Shown piece by piece: positions 47,077-59,480 of a DNA stretch of 64,000 nt. Position numbers and translations under genes: made by a program. Origin of the DNA: Microgenomates group bacterium (GTDB lineage: Bacteria > Patescibacteriota > Microgenomatia > Daviesbacterales > UBA10151); contig JBAZXP010000001.1 in NCBI GenBank assembly GCA_041659805.1, positions 800,141 to 864,140 on the forward strand, read 5' to 3'. Within the stretch, counting starts at the first letter, position 1, and each line of letters starts with the position of its first letter. Below the pieces are notes generated by a model. It did not search any database, was not told the origin of the DNA, and was given only the letters and a program-made list of their open reading frames with translations.

Positions 47077-47487
47077 CTATCTTACTCTGTGTCTTCTTTT
47101 AACCTTAAGTTGTGCTATTGCCTTTTCTAGTGCAGCAGTAGTTGTGGCAAGCTCTTCATCTGATAATTTTTGCTCCAAAGCGGCAGTCGCTCTTTTTCTG
47201 GCTTCTTCTGCTGATTTTTCATCAATTTCCTCAGCCTTTTCTGCCATATCTGTCGTTATAATCACATTATTATTGGCAACCTGCAGCAGACCAAATCCCA
47301 CTGCCATAATAATTTCCTTATTCCCTTGAGTAACTCTAACTTCACCAGGTAAAACCTGAGTCATTAAACTAATATGTTCTGGTAAAATCCCAATTTCACC
47401 ACTATCTGTGGTTGCTACAACTTCTGATACTTCATCATCAAAAATATCTTTTTCAGGAGTCACAATTTTTAAATGTAGTTTACTCAT
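47077..47487 (-). CDS. atpC: F1Fo ATP synthase epsilon subunit, located 5.6 kb away from the rest of the atp operon
   Basis: MSKLHLKIVTPEKDIFDDEV...GILPEH...AALEKAIAQLKV matches F1 epsilon. Confidence 0.8.
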   Translation of the reverse strand: MSKLHLKIVTPEKDIFDDEVSEVVATTDSGEIGILPEHISLMTQVLPGEVRVTQGNKEIIMAVGFGLLQVANNNVIITTDMAEKAEEIDEKSAEEARKRATAALEQKLSDEELATTTAALEKAIAQLKVKRRHRVR

Positions 47488-47517
47488 ACCAGATGATTTT
47501 AACACAAAGAAGGGGAG

Positions 47518-48207
47518 TTAAGGAATAAGAATTTCTACTTTTTTACAATCTGGTTTTAATTTTTCAACAACCTCTGCATTATAATTAATTCTCTTGTCTA
47601 AAAGAATGCCACCAATCATTTCAAGCAACCAATCATCATTTCTGAACCTACTCCCATCAAATGCCCGTTCTGTAAGACCTATAAAAGGATTCCATCTTAA
47701 AGCCTCTTCTTCATGCTCTCCAGGCAATCTAAAATGCTTACCACCTAAAATTTCCATAAAAGCCTTAATACCATCAGCACCTATACTCCCAATCCTTTCC
47801 ATTAATTCAAACGGCAATGAACAACTATGAATGGCTGATTCTAGCAAACCATTCTTCCATAAACCAAACTGCCCGCATCCTTCTCCATGATGGACAGCGC
47901 CGTGCGTACCAGGAGTAAAACCCAATCTCCTTAGATCTTCAGCTGCATGCATAAAACCATTCCAATCACCACCTGTTTTCAGTGCACAAATTGCATTTAC
48001 ACCACCAAAAATAGCTGGACCATACTTTTTACGATTAGGAAGTATGCCAAATCTGCCGTCGCCGCATTCTGCAGCTGCACCTTCATCTGTGGGAACAAGA
48101 TCAACATTCGATACCTTAACTTGCTCAGTTTTCCACCCACGCTCAGCAAGAACGTCGCCGATAATAAAAGGATCAAAACCAGGACTTTTAATTAATTCTA
48201 TTGCCAT
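47518..48207 (-). CDS. Hypothetical protein (229 aa)
   Basis: ORF only, GHGAVHHGEGCGQFG segment. Confidence 0.4.
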   Translation of the reverse strand: MAIELIKSPGFDPFIIGDVLAERGWKTEQVKVSNVDLVPTDEGAAAECGDGRFGILPNRKKYGPAIFGGVNAICALKTGGDWNGFMHAAEDLRRLGFTPGTHGAVHHGEGCGQFGLWKNGLLESAIHSCSLPFELMERIGSIGADGIKAFMEILGGKHFRLPGEHEEEALRWNPFIGLTERAFDGSRFRNDDWLLEMIGGILLDKRINYNAEVVEKLKPDCKKVEILIP

Positions 48208-48263
48208 ATATTTTAAAAATTAATATCCCATAGTGGGACCACAAATATGAATTGTAGCACCTT

Positions 48264-48668
48264 TTGCAAGTTTTTTCAAAGTATAGTACTATACTAGATT
48301 GTATGCCAGATCATAATTGTGATGCTCTAATAATTACTTGTATAGATTTTAGGTTCCAGAAATATATTAATGACTGGGTATCGGAAAATTTTCAGCCAAA
48401 AACTTTTGATAGAGTAGCTATTGCTGGTGGTGTTTTTGATCTTGATTACGTGCTAAAACAGGCTGAAATCTCACATAGATTACATCATGTTAAGAAAATA
48501 ATTCTGATAAATCATGAAGATTGTGGAGCCTATGGAGAAGCAGGAACAGTAAAAAAACATGCAGAAGATTTAAAAGCTGCGGGAGAAGAATTTAAAAAAT
48601 TATATCCTGAAATGGAAATTAAAAGTTACTATCTTCATCTTGATGGAAACTTTGAAGATATCTCTTAA
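48264..48668 (+). CDS. Hypothetical protein with beta-carbonic-anhydrase-like CxDxR / HxxC motifs (short, 134 aa)
   Basis: ITCIDFRFQ and INHEDCGAYGEAG. Shorter than typical beta-CA. Confidence 0.3.
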   Translation: MQVFSKYSTILDCMPDHNCDALIITCIDFRFQKYINDWVSENFQPKTFDRVAIAGGVFDLDYVLKQAEISHRLHHVKKIILINHEDCGAYGEAGTVKKHAEDLKAAGEEFKKLYPEMEIKSYYLHLDGNFEDIS

Positions 48669-48689
48669 TTTTATCTAAAAAATTAAGTT

Positions 48690-57524: not shown

Positions 57525-57912
57525 TAATCATTCCTTTCATTTGTTCAATTTTATTTTTTACAGTGTCATCAAAGACAACATCCCCAATTTTAATACGCAG
57601 GCCACCTAAAAGTGAAGAGTCTAAAACTGTTTTAACTGAGGTAATATAAAATGTTTTTCTAGCAACAGCAGTGATCTTTTTTTCCTCAGCAGATGAAAGT
57701 TTAGTTGGACTAGCAATCTCTAAAGCAGTTTTATTGATTTCTCTTTTTAAACCCCTTTGGTAAAGAGTCAAAGCCTGAATGGCATCTGTTGAAGGAAGTT
57801 TTTTTAAAGTTTTGATATTCTCGTTAATTTTTACGTCTTTGAGTTCGCCTTTTGGTGAAAAGCTATCAATAACTAATTTTTCTATTAAATTTTTTAATCT
57901 TTTATTAACCAT
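57517..57912 (-). CDS. atpH: F1Fo ATP synthase delta subunit (short form, 131 aa)
   Basis: C-terminal [24 protein letters not shown], an OSCP motif. Confidence 0.7.
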
Positions 57913-58409
57913 TATTTTTCAAACCCCTTTAAAGCACTTTTAGAAAGCTCCTCTTTATCTTTAGCTGATAATACTTTGCTGGCAGTTTTTTCAAGTCCTA
58001 AAGCTACTAAATCAGCTATCTCTGATCTTATTTCCATGTGAAGTTTTTCCCGTTCCAGAGCCATCTGTTCTTCAGACTTGGCAATCATTTTTTTAGTTTG
58101 CTCCAAGGCTTTTTCATGAGATTCAGCAATAATCTGATTAGCAGATTTCATTGCCTCATCAATCACTTTTTTGGATTCCTTGGCAGCAGCCTCCAGTTTT
58201 TTATCCCGGTCTTCAATGATTTGAGCCAGCTTTTTCTCAATTTCTTCTGCATTAGCCAACCCTTCTGCAATTTTTTCTTTTCTTTCTTCCAAAATCTTTA
58301 AAATAGGTTTATAAAGAAACTTCTTAAGTATCAAAAGAAGAATAATGAAATTAACTATTTGTGCTAATAGAAGTATGGGTTTTATCCCAAATTGATCTAA
58401 TATTTCCAT
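57912..58409 (-). CDS. atpF: F1Fo ATP synthase subunit b
   Basis: Single N-terminal TM followed by a long charged coiled coil. Confidence 0.75.
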   Translation of the reverse strand: MEILDQFGIKPILLLAQIVNFIILLLILKKFLYKPILKILEERKEKIAEGLANAEEIEKKLAQIIEDRDKKLEAAAKESKKVIDEAMKSANQIIAESHEKALEQTKKMIAKSEEQMALEREKLHMEIRSEIADLVALGLEKTASKVLSAKDKEELSKSALKGFEK

Positions 58410-58494
58410 ATTTTGATTAGTTCACAGTTAGTTAGTTCATAGTTCACAGTAAATAATTACAACAAACCAAGTAACCAACTAACCAAGAACTTTT

Positions 58495-58701
58495 TTATTT
58501 TATAAATGCAATAACCAATGCGTAGATAGCAATTGCTTCTGCAAAAGCCATACCCAAAAGCATTGGAGGTAAGATTTTATTGGCAGCATCGGGATTTCTT
58601 CCGATAGCTTCCATTGCTTTCATACCAATTAAACCAATACCAATGGCTGGTCCAACGGCACCAAGTGCTATTGCTAATGCTGACGGTAAATTTTCCATCA
58701 T
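58495..58701 (-). CDS. atpE: F1Fo ATP synthase subunit c
   Basis: Two-helix hairpin with GRNPDA loop and conserved acidic residue in [15 protein letters not shown]. Confidence 0.9.
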
Positions 58702-58742
58702 TTCTCCTTTCTCGTCCAGAGGACGACCAACCTTTGGTTGGT

Positions 58743-59480
58743 TTATCCTTCTGTACTGTGTTTTTCACTAAGTAACACCATAAAAACAAGCGTCAGCATC
58801 ATGAATACTGCCGCCTGCACAAAACCAACTATTATTTCTAAAAAATAAAACGGGAGTGGAACAATAAAAGCTAACATGCTTGAAATTGTTGATAAAACAA
58901 CCTCTCCCGCAAATATATTACCAAAAAGCCTCAAAGAAAGCGAGACTAATTTTGTAAATTCGGAAATAATTTCTAAAATTCCTACAAATAATATAACAGG
59001 ATTTAAAGAAAACCAGTGTTTAAGATAGCCAACAAACCCAAGATATCTAAGAGAATAGAAATGAGTTAAAACAACAGAAATGATTGCCAAAGAAAGAGTG
59101 GTATTAAGGTCAGAATTCACTGAACGGAATAGGGGGATAAAGACCTCTTCACCGTGCTCAATTTCATTAATACCAATTGTTCCAAATCCTGGAAATAACC
59201 CCAACCAGTTAGCGGTAATAATGAATAAAAAGAAGGTCATTAAGTAGGGAAAGAAAACTTTGGCTCTGGAATGAGCTAAATCCTCAATCACCCCATAAGC
59301 TGCTTCAATAATCATTTCATAAAAATTTTGAAGTCCTGATGGTACTTTTTGCATAGAGCGGGTAGCAAAAAAAGCAGAAATTGAAAGAATTAGAGTAATG
59401 ATCCATGTAACTAATATAGAATTAGTTACATGAAATGAGCCTATATGACCAATAGTTTCTGCAATAAGCGGTGCTTCCAT
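58743..59480 (-). CDS. atpB: F1Fo ATP synthase subunit a
   Basis: [13 protein letters not shown] (conserved Arg). Confidence 0.9.

Follow-up and report, generated by a model that had tools for sequence, protein, structure and literature searches.

Several genes beyond those for the core subunits are known from operons of F-type ATP synthases, namely those for AtpI, AtpZ, the AtpQ and AtpR proteins of N-ATPases, the zeta inhibitor of alphaproteobacteria, and the cyanobacterial AtpTheta. Carbonic anhydrase (CA)-like subunits are known elsewhere, as the gamma-CA of plant mitochondrial complex I and as CupA/B of cyanobacterial NDH-1; the vertebrate CA-related proteins (CARPs) are catalytically dead, and in the tandem beta-CA of Porphyridium purpureum (PDB 1ddz) zinc is bound by both repeats. 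Our literature searches retrieved no account of CA-like genes within atp operons, nor of a CA-like partner of the F-type ATP synthase. Bacteria of the candidate phyla radiation (CPR, or Patescibacteria) are fermentative, with tiny genomes and no electron transport chains, and how their F-type ATPase is used is an open question. Here, we analyzed a 64,000-nt stretch of DNA (the window) from a Microgenomates-group (CPR) metagenome-assembled genome (MAG), using a listing of open reading frames (ORFs) together with Pfam and NCBIfam scans. In its atp locus, a gene for a 218-aa protein, referred to as X218, is inserted between atpA and atpG. X218 is a degenerate short form of an unnamed beta-carbonic-anhydrase-fold family that is linked to atp operons.

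X218 is identical to the NCBI entry "hypothetical protein WCV81_03540" and matched no Pfam or NCBIfam family. Its close homologs number only 12 among 5.8 billion proteins, and the phmmer E values for 11 relatives ranged from 3.8e-71 to 1.1e-23. Every close homolog with a known genomic context sits between atpA and atpG. At this position (loci are denoted by L numbers and family proteins by P numbers), X is a short protein in L001/L002 (190 aa, 59% identity), in L004/L005 (197 aa), and in L006, a Daviesbacteria MAG (210 aa, 54% identity), while an intact long form is encoded in L003 (278 aa, 38% identity) and in L007/L008 (306 aa). Since the atpA-X-atpG order was found in six independent contig groups, the arrangement is neither chance nor misassembly. 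A preliminary description of the window had reported the inserted gene, with the caveat that it might be absent from close relatives or prove to be an accessory gene of the AtpI/AtpZ type. The extra gene is real and is kept in place in relatives, and it matched no accessory model in Pfam or NCBIfam. Proteins of the AtpI/AtpZ type are small membrane proteins (ATPase_gene1, PF09527), and the X218 model is a soluble alpha/beta protein; a genuine PF09527 gene is present in other CPR loci such as L009, and not in the window.

The likeness to an HD motif that had been seen in the LHDTGK segment of X218 did not hold up. This segment (residues 90 to 95) falls where the model is least confident, with predicted local distance difference test (pLDDT) values of 54 to 62; it is absent from P0002 and unconserved in other homologs, being missing or different in the closest ones, and X218 gave no HD match in Pfam. 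The HD dipeptide (residues 91 and 92) thus lies in a variable, vestigial segment, and an identity as an HD-domain phosphohydrolase was rejected.

An exhaustive profile search for the family recovered only 36 clusters at 50% identity, and these clusters and 80 metagenomic loci made up an alignment of 113 sequences, in which residues are numbered after P0008. The family has no Pfam model, giving only weak, sub-threshold matches to Pro_CA. Two forms were distinguished in the alignment, a long form of 265 to 309 aa (about 260 to 310 aa in the family) and a short form of 190 to 218 aa that includes X218. The long members all (105 of 105) have C53, D55, H110, C113, and H163, and 104 of 105 have H217; position 57 is Arg in 75 of them and Gly in the remaining 30. 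When a profile of 29 long members was compared with PDB sequences, 25 of the 26 matches were beta-CAs (best, 1ym3, E 3.7e-4), and the alignment paired CSDER with CADSR and SHxxCGAA with GHDSCGA. The AlphaFold2 model of the long form P0008 reached a pLDDT of 94.8 and a predicted template modeling score (pTM) of 0.92. The long form is a fused pseudo-dimer with a single Cys-x-Asp ... His-x-x-Cys metal site in its N-half; the C-half has no site of its own and supplies two further invariant histidines. A family previously annotated only as "hypothetical protein" is thereby given a fold.

X218 is homologous to the family over the N-terminal helices and the C-half, with the DGTG, GxG, PFYIF, and GF motifs; it retains these helices and the complete, non-catalytic C-terminal half, including G172, T173, G174, P185, G218, and G220, and in sheet topology it belongs to the beta-CA superfamily at the level of fold. 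The C-S-D-E-R and H-x-D-C-G-A-A motifs of the long form are missing from the short forms. All seven short forms have gaps at C53, D55, R57, H110, and C113, and in all seven H163 is replaced by S, D, or Y and H217 by K or N. In X218, the features of a beta-CA enzyme, the zinc ligands Cys ... His-x-x-Cys and the Asp-Arg dyad (CxDxR), are deleted. Having lost the catalytic half and both extra histidines, X218 is not an enzyme of the family kind; it is predicted to be unable to bind the family metal or to catalyze the family reaction, and CO2 hydration by this protein is not expected.

One could still imagine a split enzyme, in which the C-half of X218 pairs in trans with a 134-aa Pro_CA_2 protein encoded near atpC (Table 1) and so restores the two-half build of the long form together with an active CA-like site. 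The Pro_CA_2 protein aligned with the N-half of the long X proteins (hhalign E 2.4e-4), and Pro_CA_2 genes directly follow X in L034 and L055. However, with H163 and H217 replaced in every short form, the C-half would no longer be serving an active site, and Pro_CA_2 accompanies intact long forms too (L034, L055, and L016), so that it is not a replacement specific to the short form. We consider such a split enzyme improbable.

The linkage of the family to atp genes extends well beyond the relatives of X218. In a metagenome scan, 65 loci had enough upstream sequence to be informative, and in 42 of these the gene directly before the family member was atpC; some of the loci are near-duplicates from related samples. 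Where the contig was long enough, the whole atpBEFHAGDC operon was usually upstream of the family gene. The order atpC-then-X was found in L009 to L011, L014, and L015; the distant long members P0023, P0021, and P0025 directly follow atpC. The atpD proteins of linked loci, themselves or through 90% cluster-mates, were named Saccharimonadales, Moranbacteria, Uhrbacteria, and "Patescibacteria group"; therefore, the linkage spans several CPR classes. Members not linked to atp genes showed no second recurrent partner, their neighbors including genes for a type IV secretion system pilin/SLT, ZnuA, Lgt, Obg, response regulators, HD, and M50 proteins. One of these members, in the stretch 1194-2841 of L062, overlaps the ZnuA zinc-uptake gene that follows it (PF01297, 1.3e-82), which fits a zinc-dependent protein.

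These flanks bear on the possibility that the family, X218 included, has an independent function, such as CO2/bicarbonate or pH sensing or a COS/CS2-type hydrolysis, and is transcribed together with the ATP synthase simply because the same conditions call for both. That about a third of the family loci are not atp-linked, one of them being followed by the zinc-uptake gene, is in keeping with this idea, as is the Gly that replaces Arg57 in 30 of 105 members, which suggests a non-canonical CA chemistry. On the other hand, an independent function leaves unexplained why purifying selection keeps a catalytically stripped form between the alpha and gamma genes, and members of the CSDGR/CADGR type with informative flanks are all atp-linked across several CPR classes, whereas those of the CIDEG/CMDEG/CIDER type are mixed. 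This explanation appears to us a poor prospect.

Two further CA-like genes lie beside atpC in the window (Table 1). The preliminary description, which had seen the extra gene between atpA and atpG, missed both of them as well as the beta-CA fold of X218. The 229-aa protein is a homolog of the zeta-type (CDCA-like) CAs, scoring 41.6 bits against PF18484 (cut-off, 29.2 bits) and aligning with the diatom CDCA1 (PDB 3uk8, E 1.7e-8) at C-x-D-G-R and H...G-C-G; this alignment keeps the Cys/His/Cys metal ligands of the zeta class. Its gene is on the same strand as atpC and 30 to 48 nt upstream of it in all three short-form genomes with data (the window, with 30 nt, L017, and L018), and L007, which carries an intact X, has no CDCA-like gene beside atpC. 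In two of these three short-form genomes (the window and L018), the Pro_CA_2 gene is divergent from the CDCA-like gene. The window thus holds three CA-fold genes attached to atp genes, of which X218 is dead and the other two keep their motifs.

Our preferred reading combines an identity and history of X218 with a direct role at the ATP synthase, and as a whole we lean slightly in its favor. The identity and history are very probable by themselves. Ancestrally, the family gene would have been the last gene of the atpBEFHAGDC operon, after atpC; it would then have come to stand at the alpha/gamma junction in Microgenomates/Daviesbacteria, and in the subclade of the window the catalytic half would subsequently have been deleted and the extra histidines replaced. 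A direct role of X218 at the ATP synthase, which gene order suggests, is a more tentative proposal that falls somewhat short of an even chance. X218 would persist as an ATP synthase partner without catalytic activity, produced together with F1; its action would lie in binding, perhaps during assembly, in regulation, or as a tether. For the CO2/bicarbonate chemistry of these genomes, the zeta-type CA gene that shares a transcript with atpC would be responsible, along with the Pro_CA_2 gene next to it, and epsilon would now be expressed with a CA-like gene instead of with the rest of F1, after growth of the spacer between atpD and atpC. A more far-reaching version is unlikely in our estimation. 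It holds that the beta-CA-fold family is a CPR-wide extra partner or subunit of F1Fo that couples the interconversion of CO2 and bicarbonate, and with it the local supply or removal of protons, to proton translocation in organisms without a respiratory chain, with X218 as its non-catalytic structural or regulatory descendant and catalysis passed to the zeta-type CA that is coexpressed with epsilon.

Several observations weigh against the preferred reading. Twenty-three of the 65 informative family loci are not beside atp genes, and their neighbors are heterogeneous. L009/L010 carry an inserted ORF6N-domain gene (PF10543, 1.7e-37; 5485-6090) at the junction of atpG and atpD, and the atp operons of CPR bacteria appear to take up internal insertions readily; with unrelated insertions tolerated, operon membership is weaker evidence here than usual, and it is from gene order alone that we infer a contact of X218 with the ATP synthase. 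A profile of the short-form alignment found only noise among PDB sequences (beta-2-microglobulin, E about 0.5), a Foldseek search of the PDB with the X218 model returned nothing below E 0.039, with poor TM scores, and the fold assignment of X218 leans on its long homologs. The pattern of a dead X with a CDCA-like gene versus an intact X without one stands at three genomes versus one. Lastly, X is the fastest-evolving gene of the cluster (54 to 59% identity, compared with 68 to 73% for delta, 79 to 81% for gamma, and 88 to 97% for alpha/beta), the short forms vary between 190 and 218 aa by internal deletions, and X218 has no Shine-Dalgarno (SD)-like sequence.

The last three of these points, together with the loss of all catalytic residues and the insertion of other unrelated genes in CPR atp operons, would also be expected if X218 were a functionless hitch-hiking remnant of an enzyme gene that persists only since it lies in an essential operon, where its deletion or frameshift would disturb the expression of gamma and beta. 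We regard this as rather unlikely, given the pattern of substitution. By the Nei-Gojobori method, the ratio of nonsynonymous to synonymous substitution rates (dN/dS) is 0.15 to 0.41 for X, 0.06 to 0.22 for delta, and 0.04 to 0.05 for alpha; the dS in the comparisons of X is about 0.8 to 1.9, which is near saturation and makes these ratios rough, a further reservation about the preferred reading. Values in this range, comparable to those of delta, amount to sustained purifying selection. In addition, the N-terminal helices and the whole C-half, including DGTG, GIG, PFYIFV, and GFLAPK, are near-invariant among the short forms, the reading frame is unbroken in seven of seven, and a spacer kept for polarity alone would not conserve protein sequence. 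Judged by its sequence comparisons, X218 is a protein under purifying selection and not a decaying pseudogene.

The features of the locus are summarized in Table 1. Read along the minus strand, the genes are atpB-E-F-H-A-[218 aa]-G-D, followed by the 68-aa and 126-aa ORFs, with atpC 5.6 kb past atpD; this order, as first described, was borne out by the ORF listing and by the Pfam and NCBIfam scans. The tight packing of the inserted gene was likewise read from the sequence, with 6 nt between the atpA stop and the X218 ATG and 1 nt between the X218 stop and the atpG ATG. The ATG of the 68-aa ORF lies 19 nt after the atpD stop, and the overlap TAATG joins its end to the start of the 126-aa ORF, in agreement with the coupling noted before. 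SD-like sequences are present for atpE (strong, AAAGGAG), atpA, atpH, and atpG, and none was seen ahead of X218, atpD, the 68-aa ORF, or the 126-aa ORF in the regions read (55985-56021 and 53066-53084 among them). Translation of X218 may require re-initiation after atpA. In a scan for promoters and terminators, the sites were no commoner than in shuffled sequence, and no convincing terminator was found after atpD.

Table 1. Features of the atp locus in the window, in order along the minus strand from atpB.
Feature	Positions	Strand	Evidence or remark
atpB (Fo subunit a)	58743..59480	-	NCBIfam TIGR01131 2.8e-36
atpE (Fo subunit c, 68 aa)	58495..58701	-	ORF; ATP-synt_C genes of L001, L004, and L006 97-100% identical
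atpF (subunit b)	57912..58409	-	TIGR01144 2.3e-26
atpH (delta, short, 131 aa)	57517..57912	-	PF00213 1e-12, C-terminal half only (profile positions 89-169)
atpA (alpha)	56022..57524	-	TIGR00962 2.9e-244
X218 (soluble, 218 aa; short form of the beta-carbonic-anhydrase-fold family, without metal site)	55359..56015	-	
atpG (gamma)	54473..55357	-	PF00231 1.5e-84
atpD (beta)	53085..54461	-	TIGR01039 1.7e-247
68-aa ORF with one hydrophobic segment	52859..53065	-	lineage-specific orphan, possibly not a gene
126-aa conserved hypothetical protein	52479..52859	-	widespread CPR/DPANN family
Histidine phosphatase family protein (atpD-atpC gap)	51636..52430	-	PF00300 7.4e-25
246-aa Pro/Thr-rich protein with N-terminal hydrophobic segment (gap gene)	50856..51596	-	translation; no Pfam match
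164-aa Pro/Thr-rich protein (gap gene)	50330..50824	+	ORF; no Pfam match
514-aa SLT-domain lytic transglycosylase (gap gene)	48690..50234	-	PF01464 1.4e-14
134-aa single-domain Pro_CA_2 protein	48264..48668	+	PF20393 8.6e-17; motifs CIDFR ... HEDCGA
229-aa zeta-type (CDCA-like) carbonic anhydrase homolog	47518..48207	-	PF18484 1.4e-10
atpC (epsilon, 136 aa from ATG)	47077..47487	-	PF02823 3.9e-24, PF00401 1.3e-09, TIGR01216 1e-33
Cupin-type glucose-6-phosphate isomerase	46495..47067	+	PF06560 4.4e-23

The epsilon protein has the beta-sandwich and the C-terminal helical hairpin of this subunit and scored 116 bits against TIGR01216 (cut-off, 67 bits). Its gene starts at the ATG (47487) or at an upstream GTG (47505), and NCBI calls the 136-aa form. 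That atpC is detached from the operon was correctly described, but its "relocation" was not. The convergent pair of atpC and a cupin-type glucose-6-phosphate isomerase (GPI) gene is common to the window, L007, L017, and L018 (72% identity for atpC and 69% for GPI between the window and L007), while the distance between atpD and atpC is 1.3 kb in L007, 5.6 kb in the window, and about 12.9 kb in the Daviesbacteria MAG, the last value being derived from the positions of L006 and L017 on the contig. L007 has a single opposite-strand gene between atpD and atpC, and the convergent GPI gene comes next. Because the GPI pair is conserved, the gap size is variable, and an insertion footprint is found in L001, the locus is better described as one in which atpC stayed put and DNA accumulated between atpD and atpC.

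The footprint in L001 (5501-6806) is a 30-residue duplicate of the C-terminus of atpD (73% identity) that lies just past an opposite-strand gene inserted right after atpD; the product of this gene (386/396 aa) has Cys/His motifs resembling an HNH nuclease, and the arrangement looks like the mark of a mobile insertion at the atpD 3' end. The ORF6N insertion of L009/L010 is in a Saccharimonadales-like lineage, and L019, L021, L026, L038, and L053 have atpG-atpD gaps of 550 to 800 nt, which match it in size. In L017 (2563-9758; Daviesbacteria MAG JAQTZF010000001.1), a six-gene cluster resembling a membrane-bound group-4 hydrogenase or complex I, with Oxidored_q6, two Proton_antipo_M, NADHdh, and a fused Complex1_30kDa/49kDa, lies between atpD and the CDCA-like-atpC pair. 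In the window, the stretch 50330-51596 of the gap holds two divergent genes with long Pro/Thr-rich tracts (TPTPT repeats), and the SLT lytic transglycosylase gene (48690-50234) adjoins it.

The proposal that the 68-aa ORF, with its predicted transmembrane segment, encodes a novel subunit in the epsilon slot found no support among relatives. It gave no tblastn match in the syntenic regions of L001, L002, and L006 and forms a singleton 90% cluster, and it is an orphan or no gene at all. For the 126-aa protein, over 250 homologs, about 60% identical, were retrieved from Patescibacteria and from DPANN archaea (Nanoarchaeota and Pacearchaeota), a conservation across domains that is unusual for an unannotated protein. 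Its gene is kept 1.6 to 2 kb downstream of atpD in L001 and L006, with a dN/dS of about 0.14. A role specific to the ATP synthase was rejected for this protein, since its relatives are spread widely over CPR and DPANN. The delta subunits are 131 to 135 aa long and aligned only to residues ~95 to 174 of solved 178-aa deltas, and atpH is equally short (about 380 to 400 nt) in L001, L004, L006, L009, and most of L019 to L082. From these alignments, about half of the N-terminal alpha-binding domain of delta appears to be missing.

The placement of the family hints at an undescribed link of CO2/bicarbonate chemistry to the ATP synthase. In CPR bacteria, the enzyme may be coupled to carbonate chemistry or to pH buffering; alternatively, it may have acquired a CA-fold protein as an accessory factor. 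For CsoSCA, the carbonic anhydrase of the carboxysome shell (PDB 8thm), the sequence identity is about 11%; unlike CsoSCA, the family occurs in atp operons without carboxysome context and has two extra invariant histidines, and X218 lacks the catalytic half. The Porphyridium tandem enzyme differs from the family, in which ligands are found in the N-half only, and from X218, which has none. With regard to the zeta-class CDCA1 (PDB 3uk8 and 3boh), hhalign did not relate the X family significantly to the 229-aa protein in sequence; the view of these two as paralogs was dropped, and they count as distinct families within one fold class.

Like AtpI, AtpZ, AtpQ/AtpR, the zeta inhibitor, and AtpTheta, X218 is encoded by a non-core gene co-transcribed with the F1Fo subunits. 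Unlike these extras, most of which are small membrane proteins or short inhibitory peptides, it is a soluble 218-aa alpha/beta protein. The gamma-CAs of complex I, CupA/B, and the CARPs provide precedent for CA-fold proteins, some of them inactive, that serve proton-translocating machines as structural or binding components or that otherwise work by binding, although they belong to the gamma and alpha classes of CA and, where they are parts of complexes, to other complexes. X218 is a natural example of a change from enzyme to pseudoenzyme at a kept genomic address. While accessory atp genes and pseudoenzymes of the beta-CA fold are of known kinds, the broadly conserved genomic association of a CA-fold family with the ATP synthase in CPR has, as far as our literature searches show, not been described before.

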